NCBI GenBank assembly: GCA_041749335.1
Contig: JBGTBM010000009.1
Coordinates: forward strand, 64,179 to 128,178
Direction of reading: 5' to 3'
Source: Patescibacteria group bacterium
GTDB lineage: Bacteria > Patescibacteriota > JABMPQ01
DNA length: 64,000 nt
Numbering within the stretch: position 1 is the first letter of the stretch; every line of letters begins with the position of its first letter. A program made the translations under genes and the position numbers. The notes below the pieces were generated by a model that saw only the letters and a program-made list of their open reading frames with translations, was not told where the DNA came from and ran no database searches. Of the stretch, positions 19,763-45,078 are shown one piece after another.

Positions 19763-19782
19763 AATATAATATTAATTAATTT

Positions 19783-24267: not shown

Positions 24268-25018
24268 TTATTTGCTTATTTGCTAAATTTATACTGAGCT
24301 GGGTATAATATTTTAAATTTTGTAATTGAATATTGCTTATCCTGTCGCAAACAAAATCCCAATGCAGCGATACCCAATCTCCCTTTTTGATATTTTTAAT
24401 AAATCCCTTATCGCCAAGCTGCCAAATATATTCTTTTTCAATCGCCTCTCCCCATCCTATTTTATTGTTTTTGATCTCTAATAATTTTGTTAAAACTTTT
24501 AACTTAAAATTTTTTACTATTAATACTTTCCCCCATCCTATTCGGCATTTATCCATTGTTTCAATCGTATGATCTACGGGATAGTAGCCGGTACGCTTAG
24601 GTATGTTTATAACATGAAAACTATGGTGCGGGAATGCGCCGCTGGGTAGAATATTAATAACTTTATCAAAAATACCCGGCTTCAATTTTTTCTTTAGTTG
24701 CTGAACATCAACAATATGGCTAAATAAATCCTTCGCTTGAATATTTTTCAGCAGACCATTGCCGATCCAATATGCCTCAACCACTCTTTTATCAAACGGA
24801 TTAATGATCTTATTCTTATAAGCAATCAGTTTTAAATACGGATATAATGTTTCAAATTCCTCCAATAATCCGTTTAGCCCGGGGTCTTGATAAAAGTTTG
24901 AAGTATATTGATAAAGCAAGGAATTTTTATCCCCCCCGCAATACCTTAATTTATTGGGCATAAAGGCGTAGCGCGCGCACAATAAGCTCCCATCTTTATT
25001 ATTATATCGCTCTACCAT
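24260..25018 (-). CDS. Hypothetical protein embedded within the hydrogenase structural operon
   Basis: Uninterrupted ORF. Start set at the internal Met (MVERYNNKDG), which abuts the upstream transporter gene. The ORF-track start at 25075 is the alternative. No recognisable motif. Confidence 0.45.
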   Translation of the reverse strand: MVERYNNKDGSLLCARYAFMPNKLRYCGGDKNSLLYQYTSNFYQDPGLNGLLEEFETLYPYLKLIAYKNKIINPFDKRVVEAYWIGNGLLKNIQAKDLFSHIVDVQQLKKKLKPGIFDKVINILPSGAFPHHSFHVINIPKRTGYYPVDHTIETMDKCRIGWGKVLIVKNFKLKVLTKLLEIKNNKIGWGEAIEKEYIWQLGDKGFIKNIKKGDWVSLHWDFVCDRISNIQLQNLKYYTQLSINLANKQING

Positions 25019-25928
25019 TGGGTTCGCTTGATATATTTTCAAATTTTTTCCCGAATAATATAAACAGAGTAACACCCGCGATACTTATCAATACTCCCAA
25101 TAATTTTAAAATTTCAAGCATACTACCGCTATATATTGAGTCCAATATCGTTGTAATGGGCGATGCCAATACCAATACGCATGCCACCGTTGAAGCCTTT
25201 TCATGCTTTAAGGCATGATACCAAGTAACCACATAAATTGTTAAAAAACCTGCACTTAAAAATATCCAACTCCATTGTAGAGCTTGCAAAGAAAATATCC
25301 CTGAAATTCCGGATGTTAGCAAAACAAATGCTAAAAGTATTATCGCTCCAAAAAACATTCTGGCCCAAGCTACAACCATGGCATCAATGTTTTTTAACAC
25401 TTTTTTTGCGATTATATTTTCTATCGACCACATTATGGTTGCTAACAAAATTATTAATTCCGCATAACCAAATTTTATTGATGGCAGTCCTCCCAATAAA
25501 ATATTCCCAATCAATAAGATTCCCAGAGCAATATATTGCAATTTAGTAATTTTTTCCTTAAGAAATATTATGGCGAATATAGCTACCCATATAAATAATG
25601 TTTTATGCATAAATCCCGCGCTAACGGCCGAAGTCATGCTCAAGCCCTTAAAAAACAACAAAAAGGGAACGCTGCCTCCTATCACACCTATTGCGATAAG
25701 CTTTAACCAATTATTTTTAGATATGTCTTTGAGTTTTTTAATCACTGGTGGAGTTAAAATTACCAGAGTTAAAATAAAACCCACTAAAACATTTTTTAGC
25801 GCGGTAAATTGGTAAGGATTAATATTTTTTGTTACTGCAAATTTATTAAAAAAAACAGCAAATCCGCTAATCAAAGCCGTCATTATAGCTAATTTTATTC
25901 CAGTCTTTTTTATAATATTTTTAATCAT
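25002..25928 (-). CDS. DMT-superfamily (EamA-like) transporter
   Basis: 308 aa with about 10 predicted TM helices arranged as two EamA-like repeats. Confidence 0.7.
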   Translation of the reverse strand: MIKNIIKKTGIKLAIMTALISGFAVFFNKFAVTKNINPYQFTALKNVLVGFILTLVILTPPVIKKLKDISKNNWLKLIAIGVIGGSVPFLLFFKGLSMTSAVSAGFMHKTLFIWVAIFAIIFLKEKITKLQYIALGILLIGNILLGGLPSIKFGYAELIILLATIMWSIENIIAKKVLKNIDAMVVAWARMFFGAIILLAFVLLTSGISGIFSLQALQWSWIFLSAGFLTIYVVTWYHALKHEKASTVACVLVLASPITTILDSIYSGSMLEILKLLGVLISIAGVTLFILFGKKFENISSEPNGRAI

Positions 25929-26134: not shown

Positions 26135-26971
26135 CTATACAGCTCCTTTGATATCTTTTAATTCAGACCAGCGAAATATAGGGCCGTCTTTGCACACAAA
26201 TTTAGATCCAACTGCGCAATGTTCACAGACTCCAACACCGCATTCCATTTTTCGCTCTAAGGAAAGATAGATATCTTTATCTTTAAAATTTATCTTTTTA
26301 AGTTCATTTATCACAAATTGGCACATAACCGGCGGACCGCAAATTATTGCGATTGAGTCAGGATTGACATGAACTTTTTGGATTAATTTGGTAATAAGTC
26401 CAATATCGCAGACCATGCCTCCTAAAATTTTTTTTCTTTGCCCCTGGTCTAACGTTATATAAAAATCAAATATTTTTTTCCAACGCGCATATTCAGACTT
26501 AAATAAAAGATCGCTCTCATACTTTGCGCCATAAAATATCTGAAGATGTTTTGAATAATTTATTTTATCATCTCCAATTGTCATTAAAAGAGATCGAAAA
26601 GGAATAAAACCAATACCACCGGCAATAATCAAGGAATTTCTTGATTTAATTTTGTCCATCGGAAAGCCGTTTCCGTAAGGCCCTCTGATTCCAAAAACAT
26701 CCCCAATTTTAAGATTATGAATAGCGCCAGTTAGTCTGCCAGCCTTCCTGATTGTTACCTGAAAATTATTAGTACTCAAAGCTGAAGAGCAGATAGCAAA
26801 AGGAGCTTCGTTATAACCAGGCAACGATAATTCGATTATCTGGCCAGGAATAAATTTAAAATATTTTTGGTCATTGATTGACTTAAATTCAACCATAAAT
26901 CTTTTAACTGCCTCTGTTTCTCGCCAGATTTTTTTTATTTCAACTTGTTTAGTCAGGTAAGGATTAAACAT
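26135..26971 (-). CDS. Hydrogenase gamma subunit (FAD/NAD(P)-binding oxidoreductase with C-terminal [2Fe-2S])
   Basis: 278 aa. PyrK/FNR-like fold (RxYS-like KAGRLTG, GGIGFIPF). C-terminal Cys cluster ECGVGVCEHCAVGSKFVCKDGP. Confidence 0.8.
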   Translation of the reverse strand: MFNPYLTKQVEIKKIWRETEAVKRFMVEFKSINDQKYFKFIPGQIIELSLPGYNEAPFAICSSALSTNNFQVTIRKAGRLTGAIHNLKIGDVFGIRGPYGNGFPMDKIKSRNSLIIAGGIGFIPFRSLLMTIGDDKINYSKHLQIFYGAKYESDLLFKSEYARWKKIFDFYITLDQGQRKKILGGMVCDIGLITKLIQKVHVNPDSIAIICGPPVMCQFVINELKKINFKDKDIYLSLERKMECGVGVCEHCAVGSKFVCKDGPIFRWSELKDIKGAV

Positions 26972-26974
26972 TTA

Positions 26975-27949
26975 TTAAGATTTTAAGATTTTATCGAGTG
27001 TTTCATTTATATCAATGCCGACAGGACAAACTCTGGTGCATCTCCCACAACCCACACAACCGGGAATACTAAGCCGATCTGGAATACGTACAAATTTGTG
27101 ATAATACCAAAAATATATTCTTTCGGCTGTACTGTTAAGAAATTTATGTCCCCCGGCTACCTCTGAAAACTCCGGGTAAAAACATGAATCCCAGCATCTA
27201 ATTCTTGAGCCACTATTTTTTCCTAATGAAGCTTCATCTTCTATACGAAAGCAATAACATGTCGGGCAAGCAATCGTGCATTTCCCACACTCAATACATC
27301 TTTTGCCTAAGTCATCCCAAATTTTTTGATTATGATGATTTTTCATTTTATCTCTTATTTTTACCATCCTGTTATCCAAACCGCGCTCTTGAATTGGTCC
27401 GGCAAATTGAATATAGTCGTAATTTTTATATCCGAAATTATCCAGAACATTACTGCCCTTTTCAGAACCGGAAATTATTTGATAATCTTGGCTTTTTCTT
27501 TCAATAAAAATATCAAATTCAATATGCTCCAGAACATCTTCCTCTAAATTTTCTGAATACCTCTTATTATTCAAGGTTCCATTGGCCATATAACTTTGCC
27601 CAATTATCAAAATTTTTTTCTTACGCGCCTGATAGTAAGGATCTTTCTCATAGATATGATTTAACAAATTCAATGCTTCTAAATCAAAAATAGTCATGCC
27701 CAATGCCACAGTATTGGGGTATTTGTTTTTTTGTTCCGATAATCTATTCTTTTTATAGGTAAATAGCTTCTCGCAAGCTGGAATAAAAATATCCTTAAAG
27801 GAATGTTCGGCTACTCTGCCATTTAATAAAACCTCGCCCACATTGTCTATTTTCTTGATTTCCAAAAATTCATTCTGGACGGCGGGGCCGTAAACTTCAG
27901 TATTTACCAATAAATAACTAATAAATTTTTTATATTGATTTTTTTTCAC
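26975..27949 (-). CDS. Hydrogenase beta subunit (Fe-S protein with two 4Fe-4S ferredoxin motifs)
   Basis: 324 aa. CIECGKCTIACPTCYC and CVGCGRCTRVCPVG motifs. Lies upstream of the gamma/delta/alpha genes. Confidence 0.8.
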   Translation of the reverse strand: MKKNQYKKFISYLLVNTEVYGPAVQNEFLEIKKIDNVGEVLLNGRVAEHSFKDIFIPACEKLFTYKKNRLSEQKNKYPNTVALGMTIFDLEALNLLNHIYEKDPYYQARKKKILIIGQSYMANGTLNNKRYSENLEEDVLEHIEFDIFIERKSQDYQIISGSEKGSNVLDNFGYKNYDYIQFAGPIQERGLDNRMVKIRDKMKNHHNQKIWDDLGKRCIECGKCTIACPTCYCFRIEDEASLGKNSGSRIRCWDSCFYPEFSEVAGGHKFLNSTAERIYFWYYHKFVRIPDRLSIPGCVGCGRCTRVCPVGIDINETLDKILKS

Positions 27950-32084: not shown

Positions 32085-32795
32085 TTATTTCCATTTTCTT
32101 ACTTCAATAGCTTTTATACTGGCAAATAGCCAAAAAACTACAAAACTAAGATAATAAGACAAATTTTTAATATCCACCACTCCTTTAATAAAATCATCCA
32201 AGTGCGTTGAAAGCGCCAAATAATTTAACAAATTTTGCATACTTTCACCAACATAACCGGCTAGCCAATTTAAAATCCACAAAAGTAAAACAAAAGAAAA
32301 TCCAATCACGGCTGAAATTATTTGATTTTCGGTTAAAGTGGAAGCAAATATTCCCAAGGCAATAAAAGCCATCCCGCACATAAATACTCCGATATAAGAT
32401 GTAATAATCGGTCCGATATCCGGGTTTCCATATTTAAATAATATTAAAACATATACCAAAGTAGATAAAAGCATTAAGCCAAATAACGATAAAGCGGCAA
32501 AAAACTTACCTAAAACCACTTCAAAATCTTTGACGGGTTTAGTCATAAGAATTTCCAGCGTTCCTAGCTTTTTTTCTTCCGCGAAAAGCTTCATGGTAAT
32601 AAGCGGAATCAAGAACAGCAGGGTAATAATCATATTGTAAGCCACGCCGGTTAACGATGCCTCTTTGGTAACAAATAAAATCGCGGAAAAGAAATATCCA
32701 CATAAAATCAGAAACAACACAAAAACCACATACGCGATCGGAGATGTAAAATACGACCTTAATTCCTTATATGCGATTGTTAGAATATTTTTCAT
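32085..32795 (-). CDS. ABC-2 type transporter permease (GldF-like)
   Basis: 236 aa, 6 predicted TM helices. Confidence 0.7.
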   Translation of the reverse strand: MKNILTIAYKELRSYFTSPIAYVVFVLFLILCGYFFSAILFVTKEASLTGVAYNMIITLLFLIPLITMKLFAEEKKLGTLEILMTKPVKDFEVVLGKFFAALSLFGLMLLSTLVYVLILFKYGNPDIGPIITSYIGVFMCGMAFIALGIFASTLTENQIISAVIGFSFVLLLWILNWLAGYVGESMQNLLNYLALSTHLDDFIKGVVDIKNLSYYLSFVVFWLFASIKAIEVRKWK

Positions 32796-32810
32796 TTAAT
32801 ATTTAATCTA

Positions 32811-33782
32811 TTATTCTTTAGTGGTTAGTTTTAAGAAAATTTCCTCCAGGCCTAAGACTTCTCGGCGCATTTCCAACAGATGCCAATTGTTGCCGACTAC
32901 CACTTGAGCCAGCTTGCTTCTTACGTCTATATTTTTTTGTGATTCTACCTCTATATCAATCAAATCACCTTGATGCATTTTTAGTATATTTACATTTATA
33001 ACGCCATCAATTCCGGTCAATATAGTTTTTATGCTATCTCCGGGGCCTTTGATGGTAAGTAAAACTTTGGCAACTCCCGAAACTTTATTTTCCAAATTAT
33101 CCGGTGTATCTTCAGCCACAATCTTACCGCGTGAAATAATTATCACCCGAGAACAAGTAACAGACACCTCCGGCAAAATATGGGTGCTCAAAATAATGGT
33201 CTTTTCTTTACCTAAATTTTTTATAAGTTCTCTGATTTCGATAATTTGCTTGGGGTCAAGCCCGATTGTCGGCTCATCCATAATTAAATATTCCGGATCG
33301 CCAATTAAGGCTTGCGCGATACCAACACGCTGTTTATATCCCTTTGATAAGCTTTTAATCCTCGATCTTTTCACTTCATCCAAGCCGCAAACTTCAATAA
33401 TTTTTTTAAGATGCTTGGGTTTTTTTTCTTTAGCTACATTTTTTAAGCTAGCGATAAACTTTAAAAAATCCTCCACGTCCATATCAAGATAAATGGGATT
33501 ATTTTCTGGGAGATAGCCAATCATTTTTCTGATTGCCAAAGAATCTTCTAATATATTATATCCGCCAATTTTCACTACACCGCTGGTCGGCGGAAAGTAT
33601 CCGGTTAAAATACGCATTGTAGTAGTTTTGCCCGCGCCGTTAGGCCCTAGAAAACCGACTACTTCCCCCTTCTCAACTTTAAAAGACACTTTGTCAAGCG
33701 CCTGAAAACTGCCATATTTTTTTGATAAATCCTTAACTTCAATCATTAAAATATTTAAGCTTGTTATATTAAAATAATACAT
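32811..33782 (-). CDS. ABC transporter ATP-binding protein (GldA-like)
   Basis: Walker A GPNGAGKTTT, signature LSKGYKQRV, Walker B LIMDEPTIGLD. The true start is probably the internal Met (MIEVKDLSKKYG) near 33746. Confidence 0.85.
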   Translation of the reverse strand: MYYFNITSLNILMIEVKDLSKKYGSFQALDKVSFKVEKGEVVGFLGPNGAGKTTTMRILTGYFPPTSGVVKIGGYNILEDSLAIRKMIGYLPENNPIYLDMDVEDFLKFIASLKNVAKEKKPKHLKKIIEVCGLDEVKRSRIKSLSKGYKQRVGIAQALIGDPEYLIMDEPTIGLDPKQIIEIRELIKNLGKEKTIILSTHILPEVSVTCSRVIIISRGKIVAEDTPDNLENKVSGVAKVLLTIKGPGDSIKTILTGIDGVINVNILKMHQGDLIDIEVESQKNIDVRSKLAQVVVGNNWHLLEMRREVLGLEEIFLKLTTKE

Positions 33783-35151: not shown

Positions 35152-36009
35152 TTATAGGGTTATTAACATAGCAATTATAAATCCAATCGCCGCGCCTCCT
35201 GCGATAGGAGGCAGAGCTGCCATCGCTTGAGCATTTTTAGCATATTTTTGATACAAATTTATTACTATCAATCCCGCAAAAGCGCCAACAATAATTAATA
35301 TCGAATGCAACATGCCAAACTTTAAAGCCGATACTGAAAATACGATTGGGAAAGCTAGATCCCCCGTACCTAAAAACAAGAAATGATCGCCGGGCTTTGC
35401 TTTGTCCATATTGGCAAAAAGCAATCTTATTTTATTGGGGATTATAATAGAAAACATTGCTCCCTTTTCCGCCATCTTAGTAAACATTTCCACCATATGG
35501 CCGGTTTTATGCACCGCAATAAAATCATATATAACCAGAATAAGTAGAATTATTAAAGTCTGTGTGACCGATAAGCCTAAACCTAAATATGAACTAATAC
35601 CGATAATGGATAAAATCAATGTCAAATTGTGTAAAAATACATTCTTTTTATAATACCTTATTATAATTAATATCGTAGTCAAAAGCAAATTAATTTCTAG
35701 AGGTATAAAAACATCAAAAAAAGTTAAAATTCCAAAAAACAGCAAGAAATAAAAAATTAATTTAAAAAATGTTTCCTTTTTTGCATATTTTATCAATAAT
35801 AAAAGTAAGGCAGTACCAATTGAAAAGGAAATTATAAAATTAAGAATCGAGATATCCTGTTCTTCAATAATCTGTCTCACTTCTTCAATATTAAATAAAA
35901 CATAGCCAATATATAATCCTAAAAACTGTGTAATCAAAAATGAGACTGTTTCAATTATGACAAATGGCATGTTGTATTTGTTTTTTTGTTTTTTTGTTTT
36001 CTTTTTCAA
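35152..36009 (-). CDS. Presenilin/signal-peptide-peptidase-like GxGD intramembrane aspartyl protease (A22 family homolog)
   Basis: 285 aa polytopic protein. YD motif (LVIYDFIAV), LGTGD motif about 60 aa later, and an ALP(P) PAL-like motif about 43 aa after that. No Cys. Confidence 0.6.
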   Translation of the reverse strand: MKKKTKKQKNKYNMPFVIIETVSFLITQFLGLYIGYVLFNIEEVRQIIEEQDISILNFIISFSIGTALLLLLIKYAKKETFFKLIFYFLLFFGILTFFDVFIPLEINLLLTTILIIIRYYKKNVFLHNLTLILSIIGISSYLGLGLSVTQTLIILLILVIYDFIAVHKTGHMVEMFTKMAEKGAMFSIIIPNKIRLLFANMDKAKPGDHFLFLGTGDLAFPIVFSVSALKFGMLHSILIIVGAFAGLIVINLYQKYAKNAQAMAALPPIAGGAAIGFIIAMLITL

Positions 36010-37208: not shown

Positions 37209-37261
37209 TATTGTTTTATATTTTTTTCAGAATAATTATAACATAAATACATACTATTTTA

Positions 37262-37432
37262 TATTGTATCATTTTCTTGTTCAGACTCATTTTTAATTTC
37301 TTGTTCTTCTGCCACTTTTGGATTTAGATCTTCTTTTTTTTCAAAAAAAGGAGCGATAATATAAACTCCCAGCAGCGATAGTGCGGTTATAAAAAAAATT
37401 ACCGGCAATGCTTTTAAAATAATTTTTCTCAT
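37262..37432 (-). CDS. Possible small membrane protein (56 aa), not in the ORF track
   Basis: Minus-strand ORF MRKIILKALPVIFFITALSLLGVYIIAPFFEKKEDLNPKVAEEQEIKNESEQENDTI. Fills the gap between nnrD and the first PEP-utiliser paralog. Confidence 0.25.
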
Positions 37433-37443
37433 AATATTAACAA

Positions 37444-38499
37444 TTATAACTTTCTAACAATCCCCTTGTCTGCATTAACCTCTACATCATCGCCGTCCTT
37501 AAATACTTTAGAAGCAATTTTGGTTCCAATTACACAAGGCTTTTTCATTTCCCGCGTGATAATTGCCGCATGACATAATACTCCTCCAGCATCAGTTACA
37601 ACAGCCGCGGCTTTTTTTATCAGTGGTAAATAATCTGGTCGTGTCATTTCTGCCACTAAAATATCTCCATCATTAAAATCAGCTACTGAAGTCGGATCTA
37701 AAATTACTCGGACTTTTCCCCTTACAAATCCAGAATAACCAGCCTGACCCTTAACTTCATCGCCGTCTTCATCTCCAAGAATGATTTTTTTTAAGTTTAT
37801 GGCTTCCAACCCTAGCCATGATTCTCTCATGCCTTTGTTAAAAGTTAAAATGCTTTCTTGATGCCTTTTTTGTAATATATTTTTCTGAGGTAAATTTCCA
37901 TTTTTTAAATATTCTTCAAATTCTTCTGACAGCATTGCTAAAATCAAATCTGATTTATACCCAGTTTTTTTGCTTATAATTTTTACTAACGCATCCATAT
38001 ATTCTTCCGAACGGGTAAAAACCGGCTCTGCGTAAACACGAGCTTCCTCCATCATCTTTGAATATTTTTCCTTCTCTTTTTCGCTAAAAACATCAATGAT
38101 ATTTTTCACTACGACGTGGGGTGAATAATAATTAAATAATGCATCAATATATTCTCTAAACTCTTTGAAGGTAACTTCTTTCCCCTCGTCACGATTTATA
38201 ATCGCTAAGTAATTATCAGTTTCTTCTTTTAATAACTCACAAATTTTGTAAATAGAAAGCTCACCGGATTCAATTGAACTTTTTACCTCATTACAAAATT
38301 TTATTTTATCTGACTTGCGAATACAGGCCGTAGTAAGTCCTTCTTTGTAAAGAAAAGCGACCCGGGGAATAAACATGTCAACTTTTGGCATATAGGGCTT
38401 TCTCATATATTGTTTACCAAAATATGAATCGCTTAATAAGCTAAAGCCACCGGCCCAATAAACTATCCAGTCGTCTGCTTTAAATTTCTCTATCGTCAT
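37444..38499 (-). CDS. PEP-utilizing-enzyme mobile (phosphohistidine swivel) domain protein, paralog A, with an unknown about 250-aa N-terminal domain
   Basis: C-terminal about 90 aa: GDILVAEMTRPDYLPLIKKAAAVVTDAGGVLCHAAIITREMKKPCVIGT. This is the PPDK/PEP-synthase phospho-His motif. No ATP-grasp GGK motif in the N-terminus. Confidence 0.65.
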   Translation of the reverse strand: MTIEKFKADDWIVYWAGGFSLLSDSYFGKQYMRKPYMPKVDMFIPRVAFLYKEGLTTACIRKSDKIKFCNEVKSSIESGELSIYKICELLKEETDNYLAIINRDEGKEVTFKEFREYIDALFNYYSPHVVVKNIIDVFSEKEKEKYSKMMEEARVYAEPVFTRSEEYMDALVKIISKKTGYKSDLILAMLSEEFEEYLKNGNLPQKNILQKRHQESILTFNKGMRESWLGLEAINLKKIILGDEDGDEVKGQAGYSGFVRGKVRVILDPTSVADFNDGDILVAEMTRPDYLPLIKKAAAVVTDAGGVLCHAAIITREMKKPCVIGTKIASKVFKDGDDVEVNADKGIVRKL

Positions 38500-38514
38500 A
38501 TTTTAAAATATTTA

Positions 38515-39426
38515 TTATTTATCTAAATTTTTAGCATCCTCAATTATATCTGCCAATATCTTCGGACTAAGCTCCATATCTTCAAATCCATACTCGCCTT
38601 CTAAGACAATTTTTTGGCCCTCACTACTATTAATTATTATTATATCAAATCCTTCTCCATAACCAAAGCCGTTACCATCTCCTTTTGCTTGTTTAAGTTT
38701 TTCAATAAATTCCTTAACTGCCTTAATACCCTTAATTTTTTCTAATACTTTCATATAAAAGCACTCTGATACTGTTTGGTGAGTTCCAAAAAATCTTTCT
38801 AATGTATTGCCGAATTTTGAATAATCATCAGGTTTTTTTGAAACAATACGATTAAAATTATTGGCCATTCTCATTTCCCGTGCAATTAGAGAAACATAGC
38901 CTGCTGCTTGCCTTGAATATGACGAACTCTCATCATCCCTTAAGCCTCTAACTAAATTATCGCTTTCATTAAGTATAAATTCTAAAGCCCTCCCCTCACT
39001 AAATGCTTGATGAGCTGCATGTTTAAATTTCTCATTTCCCTCCCACATAAAATTTAGTTCTGGCAATATAACAACCTTCTCACCATAAGACATTTCTTTT
39101 TCAATTTGAGCCTTTGCTTCATCATAACTCATATCCGCTGTTAAACCTGCTTTTTCTCCTGCCATTTGTAATAAAGCTGTGTGACCAGATCGAACTCGAT
39201 CACTTCCTGCCGCCCATGCAACTTCTGGTTTTGATTTTAGTTTCAAGCTTTTATTAATCGCAGCTTGCTTACCAGCTTTTGTTAACTGAATATCTTTATC
39301 CGATTGCCCCGGCAAAGCTTTATCTTTTTCTTGATGACGCATAAAATGAAGAATAACCCTTGTCTCTGGCCTTATTTCCTGTTCTTTTACTTCAGGAGAA
39401 GTGGGTATTTCACGATATTCTGACAT
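38515..39426 (-). CDS. Histidine-phosphatase superfamily (phosphoglycerate-mutase-like) protein
   Basis: 303 aa. N-terminal LHFMRHQEKD (RHG-like catalytic motif) and a downstream SGHTALL region. Locally GC-richer. Confidence 0.5.
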   Translation of the reverse strand: MSEYREIPTSPEVKEQEIRPETRVILHFMRHQEKDKALPGQSDKDIQLTKAGKQAAINKSLKLKSKPEVAWAAGSDRVRSGHTALLQMAGEKAGLTADMSYDEAKAQIEKEMSYGEKVVILPELNFMWEGNEKFKHAAHQAFSEGRALEFILNESDNLVRGLRDDESSSYSRQAAGYVSLIAREMRMANNFNRIVSKKPDDYSKFGNTLERFFGTHQTVSECFYMKVLEKIKGIKAVKEFIEKLKQAKGDGNGFGYGEGFDIIIINSSEGQKIVLEGEYGFEDMELSPKILADIIEDAKNLDK

Positions 39427-39435
39427 AAATTAATT

Positions 39436-40893
39436 TTATTTGATTTTTGTAACTATTCCCTTTTTAGCATAAACTTCAACCCTATCGCCGTCTTTCAAAG
39501 CTCTGGTAGAAATTTTCGTACCCACTATGCACGGAATATTAAGCTCTCTAGATACAATGGCGGCATGAGAAGTCATACCACCCTCATCGGCAATGATAGC
39601 AGCTGCTTTTTTCATCGCTATAATATATTCAGGCGATGTCATACTGGCCACCAAAATATCGCCTTTTTCCATTTTATTGTTATCTTTAAAAGGATCTTTA
39701 ATGATTTTTACAACTCCAGACACCTTATTTTTACTTCCCGTGCTGACAACCGTACCCTTTATTATTTTTACCTTAATTTTCGTCTTCGGCCAAAATATAT
39801 TCAAATATTTTTTTATTATAATATGATCGACTTCAATTTGTAAATTATCGTTTTTGCCATATAGCATATAATAATTCAACCTTTTTCCGACTTCCGCCTT
39901 ATTTATTTTTTTTGGTTCTTTTAATAAAATTAAGAGTTCATACGGCCACATCCACTGTAATTTTTTTAAGTCCCATTTCCTCCTTTTTGCTATTTCGCCA
40001 ATAAATAAATCCCAAAAATAGTTCATTTTCCAAATATACGCTTTTCTGTGATCCTGCCACCAAATACATTCACTCAGCTGCTTTGCGATATAAATAATTT
40101 CACTATTTAATTTTATTTTTTTTATCAACCTTTCCTTTCTTAGGCTGTTATTTCTAATGTTATTTTTTATTTCATCAATTCTTATTTTAGCGCTTTTTTC
40201 TTTTAATAAGTCCTGTAATTTTTTATCAAAGTATCCACTCTTTAAAACACGGTTTCCGCCATAGCTATTTAATAGCCAATAATATTTTATCGCGTGTTTT
40301 TTCAAGGCTTTAGAATAATCATCCTTGTCTTTTATATTAGCCAATTTTAATAAATCCAACTCTTCAGTTTGGAAAAATGAAGGCTTAATCGGCGCGCTTA
40401 ATATCTCCAGATATTCGTCTGCTTTATCTTTAAATAATTTTTTCAACTTTTGCCTTAATAAATATTCTCCGCCCCAATTGGCAATTTCCGGCACATGGAC
40501 AATAATCCAAAATTTCAGATTAAAATCGTAAAATTCTTTTAAATGATTATATAATTTCTGATCGGATATATCCTTCCAATTTATTTTTTCCAACTCACGA
40601 GAAATTTTTTGGTAATCTTTTATCCATTGCTGATACTTGCTCCAATGCTGCAAATAAAATTTTTTGTCCAATAAATAATAACTAAAATATTTCAGTCCAA
40701 CACCTTGCAGCGCTTTCATTTCATTTATCCACAAACCGCGCCCGTCTTGATAAAGAACTAAGTATGAAGGCCATGCCCACTTATAAAATTTTTTAGTGCT
40801 TGTTAAAACCACTTTCATAAAACAGGAACCATATAAAATCTTAAAATCTATCGGGCCCCATTTAAATAGCTCTTTCTTGGGATCAATAATCAT
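39436..40893 (-). CDS. PEP-utilizing-enzyme mobile domain protein, paralog B, with an about 390-aa N-terminal domain of unknown function
   Basis: C-terminal GDILVASMTSPEYIIAMKKAAAIIADEGGMTSHAAIVSRELNIPCIVGT. The N-domain shares the KxYxWL...YGG...YF motif with paralog C. Confidence 0.65.
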   Translation of the reverse strand: MIIDPKKELFKWGPIDFKILYGSCFMKVVLTSTKKFYKWAWPSYLVLYQDGRGLWINEMKALQGVGLKYFSYYLLDKKFYLQHWSKYQQWIKDYQKISRELEKINWKDISDQKLYNHLKEFYDFNLKFWIIVHVPEIANWGGEYLLRQKLKKLFKDKADEYLEILSAPIKPSFFQTEELDLLKLANIKDKDDYSKALKKHAIKYYWLLNSYGGNRVLKSGYFDKKLQDLLKEKSAKIRIDEIKNNIRNNSLRKERLIKKIKLNSEIIYIAKQLSECIWWQDHRKAYIWKMNYFWDLFIGEIAKRRKWDLKKLQWMWPYELLILLKEPKKINKAEVGKRLNYYMLYGKNDNLQIEVDHIIIKKYLNIFWPKTKIKVKIIKGTVVSTGSKNKVSGVVKIIKDPFKDNNKMEKGDILVASMTSPEYIIAMKKAAAIIADEGGMTSHAAIVSRELNIPCIVGTKISTRALKDGDRVEVYAKKGIVTKIK

Positions 40894-42383
40894 ATTTTTT
40901 TTATTATTCCTTTATCGGCATCAACTTCTACCTTATTATTATCCTCAAAAATTTTAGTGGCATATTTAGTACCGATAATGCAAGGAATGCCAAGTTCGCG
41001 GGAAACAATCGCCGCATGACATGTAATTCCTCCCATATCGGTAACGACCGCTCCAGCCTTTTTCATCGCCGCAATTATCTCCGGATCAGTCATTTTTGAA
41101 ATTAATATATCTCCATTTTTCATTTTATTTAGATCTTTTGCGTTATTAATAATTTTAACGTTTCCTATTGCTTTGCCCGGTTGAGCGCATACGCCTATTA
41201 ATTGGATTATTTTTCGATCTATTCCTTTTTCGATTTCTACATCAATTGATTTTATAAAATTTTTCGCTTCTTTTTCTATAAAAACTTTAGTTTTACCCCG
41301 ATAAGCATATTGAACGCTATATTTATATCTTTGTTTTAACTCTTCAGCATCCACCTTACTTAACTTTAAGGCCGTTTTAATTTCCCAAGGGAGCATGCGT
41401 CGAACTAAAGCAACGTTGATTCCCAATCTATTTCCAATCTCTTTTATTAAATTTTCACTGGCATAAAATCCATAAAATAGAGCTTCTTTGCTTAAACTCT
41501 TTATGTAAATAGATTTTCTGGCAATGTTTATCAATTCCATAATGTCTTTATCAAGTTTTAAAAGCTTCAAGAATTTTTCTTGTTGTTTTTTAATATGATT
41601 TACCTGATTTTCTAAAAACCGCAGCCTTTCAATAATTTCAGCCTTATCTTTGATTAAATATTTTTTGGCGTTTTTTACAAAATATCTCTTATCCCAGGCC
41701 GGTCCAGACATGCCATACGGAAGCCAGCAATATTTCTTATAATGTTTTTCTAGTTTTTTGTTTAATATTCCATCGTTAATATTATCAAGATCCTTTAATT
41801 TTAAAACAGTCTTTATAAATTCCTGCTCTTCTTGAGCAACATGGTTTTTTATAAGCGGAGTAGCCAGAATGGCAAATACCACTTCTGGTTGCAATTTTAA
41901 TTTTTGCTGCTTTATTTTTTCTTTTAAAAGATTTATAACATATTTAGAAAATATTTCTTTGGGTGTTTCCATTACCCAAAATATTGTTCGCCGAAAATGA
42001 GCTTGGTTGTGCAATTCTTCAAATTTTTCATATAAACTGCCCAATTCTTCATTGCCTTTATCTTTTAAATTTACAGATAATAAATATCGGCCATATTCAA
42101 ACAATTTTTGTGAAAACTTTTCACTAATAAAAAATATTTTTTTGATCAGCTTAGGATCATTTAAAATTATTTTTAAATATTTATCGCCGGCATCCGCCCA
42201 TATTTTTCTTGGAAAGATATAGCTCGCCTTTTCTTTTATATACTCCACGACGCCAAAGCCAATATTTGAAAACCCGACAGATTCCATATCTTTAGTCATG
42301 CTCAACAAAGGGGAAGCGGCAAAAAGATAATGAGATGCTTCAGCTTTTTCCACTATTATCCATTTTTTGGGTCTATTTGACAT
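40890..42383 (-). CDS. PEP-utilizing-enzyme mobile domain protein, paralog C
   Basis: C-terminal GDILISKMTDPEIIAAMKKAGAVVTDMGGITCHAAIVSRELGIPCIIGT. The N-domain is paralogous to B (KKYCWLPYGMSGPAWDKRYF). Its 4-nt overlap with gene B suggests co-translation. Confidence 0.65.
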   Translation of the reverse strand: MSNRPKKWIIVEKAEASHYLFAASPLLSMTKDMESVGFSNIGFGVVEYIKEKASYIFPRKIWADAGDKYLKIILNDPKLIKKIFFISEKFSQKLFEYGRYLLSVNLKDKGNEELGSLYEKFEELHNQAHFRRTIFWVMETPKEIFSKYVINLLKEKIKQQKLKLQPEVVFAILATPLIKNHVAQEEQEFIKTVLKLKDLDNINDGILNKKLEKHYKKYCWLPYGMSGPAWDKRYFVKNAKKYLIKDKAEIIERLRFLENQVNHIKKQQEKFLKLLKLDKDIMELINIARKSIYIKSLSKEALFYGFYASENLIKEIGNRLGINVALVRRMLPWEIKTALKLSKVDAEELKQRYKYSVQYAYRGKTKVFIEKEAKNFIKSIDVEIEKGIDRKIIQLIGVCAQPGKAIGNVKIINNAKDLNKMKNGDILISKMTDPEIIAAMKKAGAVVTDMGGITCHAAIVSRELGIPCIIGTKYATKIFEDNNKVEVDADKGIIKKI

Positions 42384-42579
42384 ATTCGTAATTTAAAAAT
42401 ATTCTTATTATAATATTAATTAAACATATTTCTATTTTAAAATATTTTAATTTTATTGGCTAGCATTAAAAATTATAATGTCATTTTTCTGAAACATTAA
42501 TTATGCATAATTAATTAATAACTCATCCAACCATATCTGATTTTATGCTTGTCTATAAAGCAAAACTTGCCTTGTTATC

Positions 42580-42616
42580 AATAAATAAAAGAACCACCTT
42601 GATTTAAGTGATTCTT
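42580..42616 (-). terminator. Intrinsic terminator after the LOG-family gene
   Basis: On the minus strand: AGAATCAC-(loop)-GTGGTTCT hairpin, 8 bp with one G-U pair, followed by UUUUAUUUAUU. Confidence 0.45.
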
Positions 42617-42629
42617 TTTATAATGTTTT

Positions 42630-43349
42630 TTAGAAAATTGTTCTTTCCTCAGAGTCTTTAATCAACTCATATGCTTCTTCGGCGCTATCTACAATATGAT
42701 AAATTTTTCTATCTTGCGCATCAATACTTTTATATCCATTTAATATCACTTGTCCAATAAATTTATCCAGTTTGCTCCAATAATCTTTACCAATACAAAT
42801 TACCGGTATTTTGACAATCTTTTCGGTTTGCACCAAAGTGATAATTTCAAAAAACTCATCCAAGGTTCCAAACCCTCCCGGGAAAAAAACGTACGCCTGA
42901 GCAGATGCCGCCATCATGACTTTGCGGGTAAAAAAATAATAGAATCCTTTCCCCTTGGTAACATAGGGATTTATTCTCTGTTCTTGCGGTAATTGAATAT
43001 TCAGTCCAATTGACATAGTGCCGGCTTCTTTAGCGCCTTTATTGGCTGCCTCCATTATTCCCGGACCGCCTCCGGTAATAACTGTAAAATTATTTTGTCC
43101 TAAAATTTTGCCCAGCATTTCTGCTTCTTGGTACCATTTATTTTTCTTGTCTGTCCGCGCTGAACCGAATATTGTTACTTCTCTGCTTGTTTCGGAAATA
43201 AATTCAAATCCTTCAATAAATTCCGCCATGATGCGAAATATTCTCCAAGTAATATCACTCATTCTCCCGCCCTTTTTACCTTTTACTGGTATTTTAGTAA
43301 TTTGCTCAAATTCTTGTTCTCTAATTTTTTTCTTAGTATTTTTTTTCAT
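42630..43349 (-). CDS. LOG-family protein (cytokinin-riboside 5'-monophosphate phosphoribohydrolase / nucleotide 5'-monophosphate nucleosidase family)
   Basis: 239 aa with GGGPGIMEA and PGGFGTLDEF motifs. Confidence 0.8.
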   Translation of the reverse strand: MKKNTKKKIREQEFEQITKIPVKGKKGGRMSDITWRIFRIMAEFIEGFEFISETSREVTIFGSARTDKKNKWYQEAEMLGKILGQNNFTVITGGGPGIMEAANKGAKEAGTMSIGLNIQLPQEQRINPYVTKGKGFYYFFTRKVMMAASAQAYVFFPGGFGTLDEFFEIITLVQTEKIVKIPVICIGKDYWSKLDKFIGQVILNGYKSIDAQDRKIYHIVDSAEEAYELIKDSEERTIF

Positions 43350-43357
43350 ATTTAAAT

Positions 43358-43993
43358 TTAATTTCTATTTCTCATAATCGCGATAACGTCATCATCTTCC
43401 ACCTGATTAAAATTCTGATAAAAAGCCCCTACTGCTCCAAAAAATGGCGGAATATGCAAGCAAATGATCTCATCTACCATAGGTTTAATTTTTTTTAAAG
43501 AATCGCTGGCAGAAACCGGCACGGCAACAATAATTTTTCGAGGATTTTTATTTTGAATGGATTTTATCGCTGCCATCATTGTTAATCCGGTTGCAATGCC
43601 ATCATCCACGATTATAACTTCCTTAGATTTTAATGCTAATTTATTTTTACTGCCCCGATATAATACCACGCGCCTTTGCGCTTCTTTTTTTTCTTTTTCT
43701 ACTTCGCGGACAATATAATTTTTATCAATATACAAGTTATCAATTTCCTCGTCATTAAATAACCCCAGCCCATCTTCAGTAATTGCGCCAATCGCATATT
43801 CTTGATTACTCGGAGCGCCAATCTTTCTAGGCACTACAATATCTAAAGGTAAACCTAGAATCTTGGAAATTTTATCACCCAATACAACCCCTCCGCGCGG
43901 CAAAGCTAAAACCACCGTATCGGTTTTTTTCTTAAATTTTTTTAACTCAAGCGCCAGTTTTTCACCCGCTTCTTCTCGATCTCGAAAAATCAT
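43358..43993 (-). CDS. Type-I phosphoribosyltransferase family protein (predicted PRTase)
   Basis: 211 aa. PRPP-binding motif VIIVDDGIATGLTM. 8-nt gaps to both neighbours. Confidence 0.75.
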   Translation of the reverse strand: MIFRDREEAGEKLALELKKFKKKTDTVVLALPRGGVVLGDKISKILGLPLDIVVPRKIGAPSNQEYAIGAITEDGLGLFNDEEIDNLYIDKNYIVREVEKEKKEAQRRVVLYRGSKNKLALKSKEVIIVDDGIATGLTMMAAIKSIQNKNPRKIIVAVPVSASDSLKKIKPMVDEIICLHIPPFFGAVGAFYQNFNQVEDDDVIAIMRNRN

Positions 43994-44001
43994 ATTAAAA
44001 T

Positions 44002-45078
44002 TTAATATCTTAATATTGCTCCGATATTACCCAATTTATCCATTTTATCTTCCCATTCAACAAATTGCACCTCGGCATTCTGATCAAGCGCCTTTTGTAC
44101 CATCTCGTCCATCAAATCAACCTCCATAGCTTCCCCTCCGCAAGAACAATTTTTTTCCAACAAAAGTAAATCGCAAGCCATGCAATAATAACCCTTGTGC
44201 TCCATTTTCGCATGGACTATCAATTGTAAAACTTTTTTATTATTTAAATTATCTAAAACATCTCTAACGCCGGAAACTGCTTTATTGCCATCCCCTAAAT
44301 TATTTTCCAATTTCATTATCAATTCTTTTTCCTTTTCTCTCTCTGCCTGTTCCGCTATTACCAACGCCTTATCAAGAATTTTTTGTGTTGATTTAAATAA
44401 CTCAATTTTGAAATCTCCCGCAATAACATTTTTTAATTCTATTGGAAGATTTTCTTTCAATTGCGCTATTATTTCATCAGTACCGCCTAAAATTAATCGA
44501 TCAAATCTCTTCTCTTTCCAAATTGAATAGAGAGCAGCAATAAAATTTTTTAAATTATGTGTTGAATGTTCATCTACATGTCCCTGATATCTTTTTTGCG
44601 ACCATCCTCCCTGCGCATGCCTCCCCGGGAAGTATTCACTAATATTTCTCATTTCTTCTATTTCTCCCATATAAACCACAAATATTTTTGTCTTTTCTTT
44701 ATCAGCAACCATAACGGCATATCTTTCATGCTCATCAATTAATTTTTGCAGAGGTGCTAAATGTAGATTATGTTCCACAAATACCGCTGACGCCATGGGT
44801 TTTTTAAATTCATAGAAAAACCATTTATCATCAGCCTTACCAACAAAAAAAACTACCCCCCTGGCTCTATTAATTATGCTTTTTGGGACCTGTTTTTTTA
44901 TTTTATCGATCTGCCCAGCTGTCAGCTCATCTTCAACCTTTGTTAATAGATTCTTTAATTTAATGTTAATCTTTTCAGTAGAGTTGTTTTTTTGATCTAA
45001 ATTTAGATATAAACTTACATAGTTGTATTTATTGCTCTTTATCTCATTTAATTTTTTGATATTCTCAATAGTAAACAT
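44002..45078 (-). CDS. eRF1/Pelota-fold protein (bacterial eRF1-like, Vms1-like GxxQ variant) with a zinc ribbon inserted in domain 3
   Basis: 358 aa. Aligns by eye over all three eRF1 domains. N-domain start ENIKKLNEIKS. The M-domain loop PGRHAQGGWSQKRYQGH sits in the position of GRGGQSALRFARL. C-terminus ...LGNIGAILRY matches the eRF1 end GGIGGILRY. A CxxC...CxC insertion (YYCMACDLLLLEKNCSCGG) is present. Confidence 0.7.
   Translation of the reverse strand: MFTIENIKKLNEIKSNKYNYVSLYLNLDQKNNSTEKINIKLKNLLTKVEDELTAGQIDKIKKQVPKSIINRARGVVFFVGKADDKWFFYEFKKPMASAVFVEHNLHLAPLQKLIDEHERYAVMVADKEKTKIFVVYMGEIEEMRNISEYFPGRHAQGGWSQKRYQGHVDEHSTHNLKNFIAALYSIWKEKRFDRLILGGTDEIIAQLKENLPIELKNVIAGDFKIELFKSTQKILDKALVIAEQAEREKEKELIMKLENNLGDGNKAVSGVRDVLDNLNNKKVLQLIVHAKMEHKGYYCMACDLLLLEKNCSCGGEAMEVDLMDEMVQKALDQNAEVQFVEWEDKMDKLGNIGAILRY

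Follow-up and report, generated by a model that had tools for sequence, protein, structure and literature searches.

The three swivel-domain genes A, B, and C probably encode acceptor ('H-type') subunits of two-component RPH-like small-molecule dikinases, which would be charged by an ATP-grasp protein encoded outside the window, that is, the whole 64 kb stretch of DNA analyzed here. An earlier note on this DNA was borne out in its account of the genes, the swivel domains, the catalytic histidines, and the paralogy, but not in its readings of the A N-domain and of the base composition of Ph, the histidine-phosphatase-fold gene of the locus. Its proposal of a split dikinase with a separate donor and several substrates is supported by standalone PPDK_N genes, by one-to-many fusions, and by the divergence of N-domains relative to swivels in related loci. 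The enzyme class is not uncharacterized, as the note had it, since the two-component RPH homologs HpeHI, CreHI, and PpsAB are biochemically established, with an ATP-to-His-to-acceptor mechanism (PMC12167813).

Locus organization

Four minus-strand open reading frames make up the locus, and the exact coordinates reported for them earlier were recovered. Their features, with the flanking signals, are as follows.

42587..42618, minus strand: terminator-like hairpin (pattern match only), just 3′ of the preceding LOG-family gene
42407..42434, minus strand: promoter-like site, 10/12 consensus matches
40890..42383, minus strand: gene C, 497 aa, predicted long-type acceptor ('H-type') subunit
41211-42383, minus strand: C N-domain, aa 1-391, helical, RPH-rifampin-binding-like
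40893-41210, minus strand: C swivel, aa 392-497, His456 codon at 41016-41018
39436..40893, minus strand: gene B, 485 aa, predicted long-type acceptor subunit, paralog of C
39760-40893, minus strand: B N-domain, aa 1-378, paralogous to that of C
39439-39759, minus strand: B swivel, aa 379-485, His443 codon at 39565-39567
38515..39426, minus strand: gene Ph, 303 aa, histidine-phosphatase-fold protein; predicted catalytic core R30, H31 (codon 39334-39336), R79, and H216
37444..38499, minus strand: gene A, 351 aa, predicted short-type acceptor subunit
37765-38499, minus strand: A N-domain, aa 1-245, truncated
37447-37764, minus strand: A swivel, aa 246-351, His310 codon at 37570-37572

A, B, C, and Ph are real genes and probably form a single operon in the order C-B-Ph-A, with intergenic gaps, calculated from coordinates and sequences, of -4, 9, and 15 nt; the C stop and B start share 4 nt (ATGA), the overlap noticed previously. 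The promoter-like site lies within a 246-nt gap upstream of C and is a possible start of this operon, although a consensus scan in an AT-rich genome is weak evidence, and the hairpin would set the LOG-family gene apart from the swivel operon. GC content is 0.351 for Ph, 0.349 for A, and 0.314 for B and C, against 0.329 for the window, so the base composition of Ph is unremarkable, contrary to the earlier claim of a visible difference.

Swivel domains and the catalytic histidine

All three proteins end in a PF00391 domain identified by Pfam (A residues 275-346, E 6e-23; B, E 2e-25; C residues 422-492, E 4e-24), and the catalytic histidine (H310 in A, H443 in B, H456 in C) sits in the motif GGxx(C/S)HAAI and is kept in 99% of 253 family members. 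Neither PF01326 nor PF02896 was found in A, B, or C by Pfam, even at E≤1, in agreement with the earlier reading that an ATP-grasp and a PEP/pyruvate barrel are absent. In sequence, the swivel comes closest to the PEP synthase swivel (8a8e, E 8e-48), and it resembles the swivels of PEP synthase and PPDK in its GGxT(C/S)HAAI motif, including a Thr at position -2 from the histidine that is conserved in 90% of the 253 members. Because RPH and HpeH have Met at this position (PMC12167813), the swivel is nearer to PEP synthase than to the characterized two-component dikinases. Unlike PEP synthase and PPDK, A, B, and C have no TIM-barrel (PF02896), no fused ATP-grasp, and a C-terminal instead of a central swivel. 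Matches to the NCBIfam PRK08296 'hypothetical protein' models (~600 aa, with a C-terminal swivel) span the swivel region only.

N-terminal domains

The description of these proteins as carrying only a swivel domain is misleading, since each also possesses a large, well-folded N-domain (about 245-390 aa) with homology to the RPH rifampin-binding domain. An AF2 model of C (pLDDT 94.6, pTM 0.91) was used for the structural comparison with RPH that had been suggested; its N-domain is almost entirely helical and resembles the rifampin-binding domain, not an ATP-grasp. The top six Foldseek matches were all RPH-Lm (E 6e-14, TMq 0.58, ~570 aligned columns; PDB 5FBS/5FBT/5FBU/5HV1), the closest structural match to C and the sole one to cover its full length. 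RPH has three domains in one chain; C as a whole is equivalent to two of them, the rifampin-binding domain and the swivel, and its model matches an RPH minus its ATP-grasp. At the profile level, family positions 251-494 align to RPH 617-866 (E 5e-26).

The phosphate-site motif of RPH is Y-R666-E667-x-x-K670 (PMC4844700), and the family motif YxK295xxR298K299D aligns with it, its basic residues with R666/K670. Conservation among the 253 members is 72% for K/R295, 78% for R298, 82% for K299, 90% for R319, and 94% for R352, whereas RPH E667 has no conserved equivalent among them, and there is no sign of rifamycin as a family substrate.

B and C are paralogs, as proposed, with 31% identity over 434 aa; their swivels are 56% identical and their N-domains 19%. 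The claim that A has a different N-domain did not hold: HHalign places A-type N-domain residues 41-240 on B/C N-domain residues 163-380 (probability 98.5%, E 1.5e-15). The N-domain of A is thus a truncated form of the one in B and C, and BLASTP aligns A 169-351 with C 310-497. Short proteins like A make up a conserved subfamily, and family lengths are bimodal.

Arrays, fusions, and the ATP-grasp partner in relatives

Comparison was made with 78 related loci, mostly from CPR bacteria and DPANN archaea, with stored flanks of ≤10 kb. Full-length homologs occur widely in both sizes, about 350 and about 490 aa (>3,000 matches), and arrays reach 13 swivel modules. Median identity between paralogs of one locus (207 pairs) is 54% for the swivel and 18% for the N-domain. 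The strong conservation of the swivel surface among paralogs is consistent with their sharing a protein partner, and N-domains this divergent in arrays of ≤13 modules fit diversified ligand specificity better than they fit a relay. Acylphosphatase and Pta-like (by eye) genes occasionally adjoin arrays.

A highly conserved standalone PPDK_N ATP-grasp gene (about 315 aa) lies beside arrays in 18 of the 78 loci and was the top recurrent neighbor in unbiased clustering of flanking genes. An ATP-grasp of any kind is present within the stored flanks at 24 of the 78 loci and absent from them at 54, and with flanks of ≤10 kb such absence is weak evidence. Six loci have an ATP-grasp fused to family modules, four of them with 2-8 modules; in these four genomes, a single open reading frame consists of one ATP-grasp followed by 2, 2, 4, or 8 N-domain-plus-swivel modules, every one of which keeps the GGxx(C/S)H motif. 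The standalone PPDK_N protein aligns full-length to the ATP-grasp of RPH (E 2e-63) and to the 387-aa standalone chain 9goj (E 1e-50), and the CPR standalone ATP-grasp is PEP-synthase-like. These proteins are abundant in CPR (7,989 matches), and the best 120 CPR homologs are 311-369 aa long (most 312-333) and at least 66% identical.

No ATP-grasp was detected in the 64 kb window by tblastn/phmmer (best E 0.37) or by Pfam among 50 window proteins, which include 47 of the 52 listed open reading frames of ≥150 aa; two spurious plus-strand frames and three ABC-type/membrane frames (32085-33782, 35152-36009) were left out of the Pfam scan. The closest syntenic relative likewise has none within 10 kb. 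With the gene absent from the 64 kb, the donor in this genome can only be inferred.

The histidine-phosphatase-fold protein

The window Ph protein falls in no family recognized by Pfam or NCBIfam, although more distant members of its family pass Pfam His_Phos_1 (PF00300). Its placement in the histidine-phosphatase superfamily, made earlier from motifs, is upheld by an AF2 model (pLDDT 91.9) whose top 50 PDB matches all belong to that superfamily, SixA structures among them, and by the invariance of R30, H31, R79, and H216. The Ph family comprises about 378 representatives/clusters. The fold and the catalytic quartet R-H...R...H are those of SixA, dPGM, CobC, and GpgP Rv2419c, from which Ph differs in its large helical cap (about 115 aa) and in forming a separate family tied to dikinase genes. 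This family is lineage-specific and accompanies the dikinase genes: at each of the 14 loci examined, a relative adjoins swivel genes, ATP-grasp genes, or both, in orders such as PPDK_N→Ph→A-type (locus L091, which shares the Ph→A-type order of the window) and PPDK_N→Ph-FGase→swivel (locus L092). Ph is found in 11 of the 78 family loci, most arrays being without it, and some relatives are fusions with amidohydrolases of small molecules (Peptidase_M20 and FGase). Ph is most likely a hydrolase dedicated to the dikinase system, with a phosphorylated small-molecule product or intermediate as its target; resetting of phospho-His is less likely.

Comparison with characterized systems

In architecture, the family is comparable to the split systems HpeHI (Rhodococcus), CreHI (Corynebacterium), and the phenylphosphate synthase PpsAB (Thauera). 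All have an RPH-rifampin-binding-like domain and a C-terminal swivel with the histidine in a T/SxxGGxxxH context (PMC12167813), as well as an ATP-grasp on a second protein of about 320-340 aa, which in relatives of the present genes is encoded beside the swivel genes. At about 350 or 490 aa, the H subunits of this family are smaller than HpeH (roughly 71 kDa), and relatives have 2-13 divergent paralogs per single ATP-grasp in place of 1:1 pairs. Unlike the known systems, the family is found in CPR bacteria and DPANN archaea, outside any aromatic-catabolism context, and is accompanied by a histidine-phosphatase-fold protein, and the window has no I subunit. The prodiginine ligases PigC, RedH, and HapC are further members of the RPH-like superfamily. 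They too have a swivel at the C-terminus, and it is this region that their NCBIfam matches to the window proteins cover (57-70 bits against cut-offs of 1300-1350), but they combine it with an ATP-grasp in a single chain, and in them phosphorylation activates a condensation.

Proposed mechanism and alternative explanations

By analogy with RPH, HpeHI, and PpsAB, ATP would be bound by a separate ATP-grasp ('I-type') protein, about 315 aa long, and the conserved swivel histidine would attack the beta-phosphate, with the gamma-phosphate leaving as Pi. The three N-domains are predicted to differ in the small-molecule acceptor that they bind. The phospho-His domain would then swing back to its own N-domain and phosphorylate the bound molecule, for a net reaction of ATP + X + H2O -> AMP + Pi + X-P. 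One conserved ATP-grasp, encoded outside the 64 kb window, would charge all paralogs in trans.

Two other readings are each rather unlikely. The swivel proteins may instead be carriers or regulators in a phospho-His relay, like PTS components or VadK, passing phosphate to proteins or switching state, with Ph resetting the phosphohistidine as SixA does. Such a role would agree with the SixA fold of Ph, with its constant position beside swivel genes in the loci examined, with the conserved Thr at -2, a regulatory site in PEP synthase and PPDK, and with the precedent of VadK, a PPDK-derived protein turned regulatory histidine kinase (PMC13400623). The earlier note's His-phosphorelay with a dedicated phosphatase is nevertheless disfavored, because the N-domain, a homolog of a small-molecule-binding domain, retains the basic motif that lines up with the phosphate site of RPH, its divergence is better explained by ligand diversification, and Ph, at about 300 aa with its cap, is far from a minimal SixA of about 160 aa, has relatives fused to small-molecule amidohydrolases, and is missing from most arrays. 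No better odds attach to A, B, and C acting without an ATP-grasp partner in this genome, through His-mediated exchange between small molecules or with another donor, such as acetyl phosphate or a host-derived phospho-metabolite. HpeH alone exchanges phosphoryl between 4-phosphoacetophenone and acetovanillone (PMC12167813), the window, the syntenic relative's flanks, and 54 of the 78 loci are without an ATP-grasp, and acylphosphatase and Pta-like genes occasionally occur beside arrays; yet the short flanks make nearby absence weak evidence, standalone PPDK_N is abundant in CPR and the single most recurrent neighbor, and the conserved swivel surface suits a shared protein partner.

It is very improbable that these are pseudogenized ppsA fragments or PpsA/RPH enzymes with a cryptic N-terminal ATP-grasp, even though homologs are publicly annotated as 'phosphoenolpyruvate synthase/pyruvate phosphate dikinase' and the swivel has its closest counterpart in PEP synthase. 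The reading frames are intact, with widespread full-length homologs in two length classes, the histidine is present, the N-domain is helical, no ATP-grasp is hidden in it by either the Pfam search or similarity to CPR ATP-grasp proteins, and NCBIfam scores are far under cut-off for PpsA (e.g. 128 against 598 bits) and RPH (54-69 against 999 bits), all of which contradicts this explanation.

Significance

Acceptor subunits of a two-component RPH-like dikinase, the preferred interpretation of A, B, and C, would belong to an enzyme class that is already known, in a multi-copy CPR/archaeal version that has not previously been described.

Gene organization

Three proteins, A, B and C, each end in a swivel domain (PF00391) with a catalytic histidine, and Ph, a protein of the histidine-phosphatase fold, is encoded between A and B. 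The positions given for the four ORFs in the earlier note were confirmed exactly, all on the minus strand, as was the 4-nt overlap of B and C, where a single ATGA holds both the C stop and the B start.

37444-38499, minus strand: gene A, 351 aa
38515-39426, minus strand: gene Ph, 303 aa
39436-40893, minus strand: gene B, 485 aa
40890-42383, minus strand: gene C, 497 aa

Spacing between the remaining genes is 9 nt (B-Ph) and 15 nt (Ph-A). Two further features, both consensus matches only, are a terminator-like hairpin behind the upstream LOG gene and a promoter-like site ahead of C. Because of this overlap, the short gaps, the hairpin, and the promoter-like site, the four genes look like one operon in the order C-B-Ph-A. 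The deviant base composition ascribed to Ph was not borne out, as GC content is 0.351 in Ph and 0.349 in A, with B and C at 0.314 and the window as a whole at 0.329; a foreign origin of Ph on compositional grounds was rejected. An ORF of 57 aa (37259-37432, minus strand), 11 nt downstream of gene A and with a single predicted transmembrane helix, was considered as a further subunit and rejected, as this small membrane protein was found only in the two closest relatives.

Three other genes lie directly upstream of the operon:

42630-43349, minus strand: LOG/SLOG-family protein
43358-43993, minus strand: phosphoribosyltransferase (PRTase)
44002-45078, minus strand: baeRF family 10 (bacterial eRF1-like) protein

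This block (42630-45078, minus strand) is kept in the closest relative (loci L002/L003) and not in other array loci, and looks like a separate system. LOG/SLOG, PRTase, baeRF-family-10, and NAD(P)HX-dehydratase genes were all rejected as system members, being conserved in the closest relatives only (2-3 loci). Elsewhere in the window, an 828-aa protein (3288-5774, minus strand) is a fusion of MurG, with both glycosyltransferase 28 domains (N and C), and a complete Mur ligase resembling MurC, and the N- and C-terminal halves of transketolase are encoded by two genes (18776-20637, minus strand) beside a ribulose-phosphate 3-epimerase and a PfkB-family kinase. Genes resembling those for the large and small subunits of NiFe-hydrogenase, with a DUF6390 gene behind them (22259-25075, minus strand), are near Fe-S and NAD-binding oxidoreductase subunits (26135-27949).

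Swivel domains and catalytic histidines

Full-length Pfam matches established the C-terminal PF00391 domain in A, B, and C (E 6e-23, 2e-25, and 4e-24; 80.7, 88.8, and 84.5 bits, respectively, against a gathering score of 23.1 bits). The catalytic histidine is present within the motif GGxx(C/S)HAAI at H310 of A, H443 of B, and H456 of C, and is 99% conserved among 253 family members; the residue two positions before it is Thr in B, C, and 90% of the family, and Leu in A.

All three chains end at the swivel domain. As the earlier note had proposed, Pfam detected neither PF01326 (PPDK_N) nor PF02896 (PEP-utilizers_C) in them even at E<=1, so the PEP/pyruvate-binding TIM barrel has no match, and the chains showed no similarity to a CPR PPDK_N protein that would indicate an ATP-grasp. 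PEP synthase and PPDK, in contrast, have both a fused N-terminal ATP-grasp and a C-terminal TIM barrel. NCBIfam PpsA models scored 103-128 bits against cut-offs of 598-740, the rifampin phosphotransferase (RPH) model NF041857 scored 54-69 bits against a cut-off of 999, and the PRK08296 models, ~600-aa 'hypothetical protein' models with a C-terminal swivel, matched on the swivel alone, far under cut-off.

The helical N-domain and its relation to RPH

Describing these proteins as carrying only a swivel domain proved misleading, as C is predicted to have a ~390-aa, largely helical N-domain ahead of the swivel. The very confident AlphaFold2 model of C, built from 42 homologs (pLDDT 94.6, pTM 0.91), bore out the proposed comparison with the rifampin-binding domain: its best six Foldseek matches among solved structures were all RPH-Lm (E 6e-14 to 5e-11, TMq up to 0.58, ~570 aligned columns), and the remaining matches covered the swivel alone. 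Residues 251-494 of the family profile also aligned onto RPH 617-866 (E 5e-26). On the strength of these RPH-Lm-only full matches and the profile alignment, C corresponds to the rifampin-binding domain plus swivel of RPH, minus the N-terminal ATP-grasp. The binding-domain fold followed by a C-terminal swivel is thus common to RPH and C, but RPH holds three domains in one chain, including the ATP-grasp that A, B, and C lack.

In RPH, motif residues hold the transferred phosphate, with Arg and Glu essential (PMC4844700); the Arg666-Glu667 pair is essential for the second phosphotransfer. The family motif YxK295xxR298K299D lies opposite RPH Y-R666-E667-x-x-K670 in a sequence-profile alignment only, in which K or R stands opposite R666 in 72% of 253 members, K670 aligns with K299 (82%), and the E667 position is variable. 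Other conserved positions in this sample are R298 (78%), E315 (87%), R319 (90%), R352 (94%), and H456 (99%).

Paralogy of B and C was upheld (31% identity across 434 aa), with 19% identity in the N-domain and 56% in the swivel. The view that A has a different N-domain was not: HHalign matched residues 41-240 of the A type to positions 163-380 in the long N-domain (probability 98.5%, E 1.5e-15), and A is therefore taken as a truncated form of the same domain. N-domain lengths are bimodal across relatives, at ~225-275 aa and ~325-425 aa, and A belongs to the short class.

Related loci

More than 3,000 relatives of C were found in the database; those listed record PF00391 alone, and the named sources among them are almost all Patescibacteria (CPR) and DPANN archaea. 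Ten longer homologs (~600 and 850 aa) were checked for a hidden ATP-grasp, and none had one; seven were tandem fusions with two swivel domains and three had a single swivel with an unexplained N-terminal extension.

Ninety-two loci were collected and, with duplicates and pure PpsA loci removed, 78 of 86 non-duplicate loci were family loci; two Ph loci, L091 and L092, were added after the 86-locus tally. Loci carry a median of three swivel modules and up to 13 within about 21 kb, and a run of at least 11 paralogs in a row stands on one Magasanikbacteria contig. Across 207 pairs of within-locus paralogs, median identity is 18% in the N-domain and 54% in the swivel. No meaningful PADLOC match to anti-phage defence was obtained for A, B, C, Ph, or the ATP-grasp.

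Several other genes recur near the arrays. Raw counts of flavin-related genes are six loci for flavokinase, six for a small CTP_transf_like (RibL-like) protein, and three for riboflavin synthase plus DMRL synthase (L087 9033-10551; L091 4880-5937; L013, L042, L062, L073, L023, L045, L048), and may point to vitamins or cofactors as substrates. In 11 loci there is a TrmB-like regulator. Other phosphohydrolases occur with some arrays (listed sites L004 11569-12255 and 15073-15348; L044; L058): in three loci the gene directly after a swivel or ATP-grasp gene encodes an acylphosphatase. HAD-like and HD-like hydrolases also recur, named by eye from motifs, with Pfam HAD matches in L089 and L091 only. 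A different His_Phos_1-type protein of 228 aa occurs in L004.

A proposed separate ATP-grasp partner

A standalone PPDK_N gene, encoding an ATP-grasp protein of ~310-340 aa, is present in 18 of the 78 family loci, and the ATP-grasp is fused to family modules in six more. Unbiased clustering of all neighboring ORFs returned the standalone ATP-grasp as the most recurrent neighbor (15 loci), followed by the TrmB-like regulator, a HAD-like hydrolase, Ph, and an HD-domain protein, the HAD-like and HD assignments again being by eye. The standalone protein aligns end to end with the ATP-grasp of RPH (E 2e-63), with PEP synthase, and with the 387-aa standalone chain 9goj. Among 7,989 matches, the best 120 CPR homologs are 311-369 aa long, most of them 312-333 aa, and at least 66% identical, in contrast to the low N-domain identity of acceptor paralogs within a locus. 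The gene frequently adjoins rplI-pyrG, L004 and L087 being examples.

Single uninterrupted ORFs in four genomes, those of one Woesearchaeota archaeon and three bacterial MAGs, encode one N-terminal ATP-grasp followed by two, two, four, or eight modules of N-domain plus swivel, with the catalytic-His motif intact in every module. These are, in effect, dikinase 'polyproteins':

L048 6251-17554: fusion ORF of 3,768 aa, eight modules (the largest)
L068 6926-12916: fusion ORF of 1,997 aa, four modules
L031 384-4316: fusion ORF of 1,311 aa, two modules
L067 4970-8440: fusion ORF of 1,157 aa, two modules

Within the 64 kb window, no ATP-grasp or PEP-binding domain was detected by tblastn and phmmer with a CPR PPDK_N protein (best E 0.37) or by Pfam scans of 50 window proteins. 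Of the 52 listed ORFs that reach 150 aa, these scans covered 47, the other five being two spurious ones on the plus strand and three of ABC type or membrane type (32085-33782 and 35152-36009); three additional proteins complete the 50. The closest syntenic relative likewise had no ATP-grasp within 10 kb.

The Ph protein

Window Ph has no Pfam or NCBIfam assignment, and PF00300 (His_Phos_1, cut-off 21.7 bits) has no match, yet its proposed place in the histidine-phosphatase superfamily is sustained by R30, H31, R79, and H216, invariant in 25 sequences, and by concordant fold matches. The best 50 fold matches of its confident AF2 model (pLDDT 91.9) all belong to this superfamily, including mycobacterial hydrolases, GpgP Rv2419c, CobC, SixA, and dPGM. 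A full HMMER profile search recovered 378 representatives of the Ph family, and PF00300 is passed by the relatives P0318 (34.5 bits), P0344 (23.9 bits), and P0304 (26.0 bits); as distant relatives pass and window Ph does not, the sequence link to the superfamily is transitive.

Ph is a capped protein of 303 aa with a ~115-aa helical insertion, unlike the SixA-type phosphohistidine phosphatases, which have a minimal core of ~160 aa and no cap, and SixA structures are among the weaker fold matches. Long family members are fusions to Peptidase_M20 or FGase (N-formylglutamate amidohydrolase), as observed for P0298 (756 aa) and P0318 (629 aa; L092 2156-4045). The large cap, together with the fusion of relatives to amidohydrolases, makes a phosphorylated small molecule the probable substrate of Ph; alternatively, Ph may reset phospho-His.

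The swivel arrays of the window and of seven loci reached via a swivel gene include a Ph-family gene. Four Ph homologs looked up independently had the same linkage, two with a standalone PPDK_N ~2.2-2.4 kb downstream. Two relatives at greater distance have compact cassettes: gene order is PPDK_N→Ph→A-type swivel protein in L091, with Ph→A as in the window, and PPDK_N→Ph-FGase fusion→swivel protein in L092, for a total of 14 of 14 linked loci.

Proposed two-component dikinases and alternative explanations

HpeHI, CreHI, and PpsAB are biochemically established two-component RPH homologs (PMC12167813). In these systems, the first protein, an ATP-grasp, presents ATP to the second, which consists of an RPH-binding-like domain and a swivel. 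The histidine of the swivel is pyrophosphorylated, loses the gamma-phosphate, and then phosphorylates a bound small molecule; mutation of the histidine abolishes activity (PMC12167813; PMC4844700). The H subunit is defined as having the RPH-binding-like domain and C-terminal swivel with no ATP-grasp (PMC12167813), and A, B, and C likewise have this second-protein architecture, with relatives coupled to the first protein as neighbors and as one-to-many fusions. From this architecture and genetic coupling, it is fairly likely that A, B, and C are dikinase acceptor subunits, that each has its own acceptor specificity, and that all are charged in trans by one conserved ATP-grasp outside the window. 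A separate, conserved ATP-grasp encoded beyond the window would charge the swivel histidines, and each of the three proteins would transfer phosphate to its own small-molecule acceptor, with AMP + Pi as the other products.

By analogy, the system would thus work like HpeHI, CreHI, and PpsAB, but it departs from them in two of the features tested. The I subunit of these systems is encoded with the H subunit, whereas none is found in the 64 kb window, but homologs adjoin in 18 of 78 loci and are fused in six more. HpeH, CreH, and PpsA have Met two positions before the histidine, whereas B, C, and 90% of the family here have Thr, as does PEP synthase. HpeH, CreH, and PpsA are ~45% identical among themselves, and their likeness to A, B, and C is one of architecture.

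A regulatory relay of phospho-His in which Ph would serve as a SixA-like phosphatase has a precedent in VadK (PMC13400623) and is improbable here, Ph differing from SixA in its cap and size. Donor-independent phosphoryl exchange by A, B, and C, of which HpeH alone is capable (PMC12167813), likewise has a low probability. That the proteins are ppsA fragments or cryptic ATP-grasp enzymes deserves almost no credence in the face of no PF01326 or PF02896 at E<=1, no similarity to CPR PPDK_N, NCBIfam scores far under cut-offs, >3,000 relatives, and a helical N-domain with RPH-Lm as the best fold match.

Beyond the reading of A, B, and C as acceptor subunits charged in trans, a broader joint claim, doubtful as a whole, is that a combinatorial dikinase platform common to CPR and DPANN might combine one highly conserved ATP-grasp, up to ~13 rapidly diversifying acceptor modules, and a dedicated histidine-phosphatase-fold enzyme. 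The modules would be placed in arrays or in single polyproteins of up to 3,768 aa, with C-B-Ph-A as one instance. As part of the same claim, many host- or environment-derived small molecules would be phosphorylated, trapping scavenged metabolites and vitamins or neutralizing toxic compounds, and the platform would be lifestyle-linked and take up an estimated 1-2% of each of these very small genomes.

Implications

[quoted passage not shown] The two-component RPH-like dikinase offers a frame for a very large family annotated as 'PEP synthase', 'PEP-utilizing enzyme', or 'hypothetical'. The dikinase class is known and the mechanism has precedent, but one ATP-grasp with many divergent acceptors, 1:2-8 fusions, and a dedicated phosphatase family are traits for which characterized members have no reported counterpart. 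The one-to-many organization, the polyprotein fusions, the dedicated Ph family, and the CPR/DPANN arrays and distribution had no description in the literature searched; given its incomplete coverage, this amounts to absence of evidence and no more.

A survey of antibiotic resistance in CPR genomes counts rifampin phosphotransferase (rph) matches (PMC8651080), and among these may be RPH-like proteins that are split or lack the ATP-grasp and whose substrates are unrelated. Should the acceptors prove to be antibiotics or scavenged metabolites or vitamins, the system would have a direct bearing on the way in which these symbionts obtain or detoxify compounds, and caution would be warranted in taking such genes for markers of rifampin resistance or gluconeogenesis when metagenomes are surveyed.
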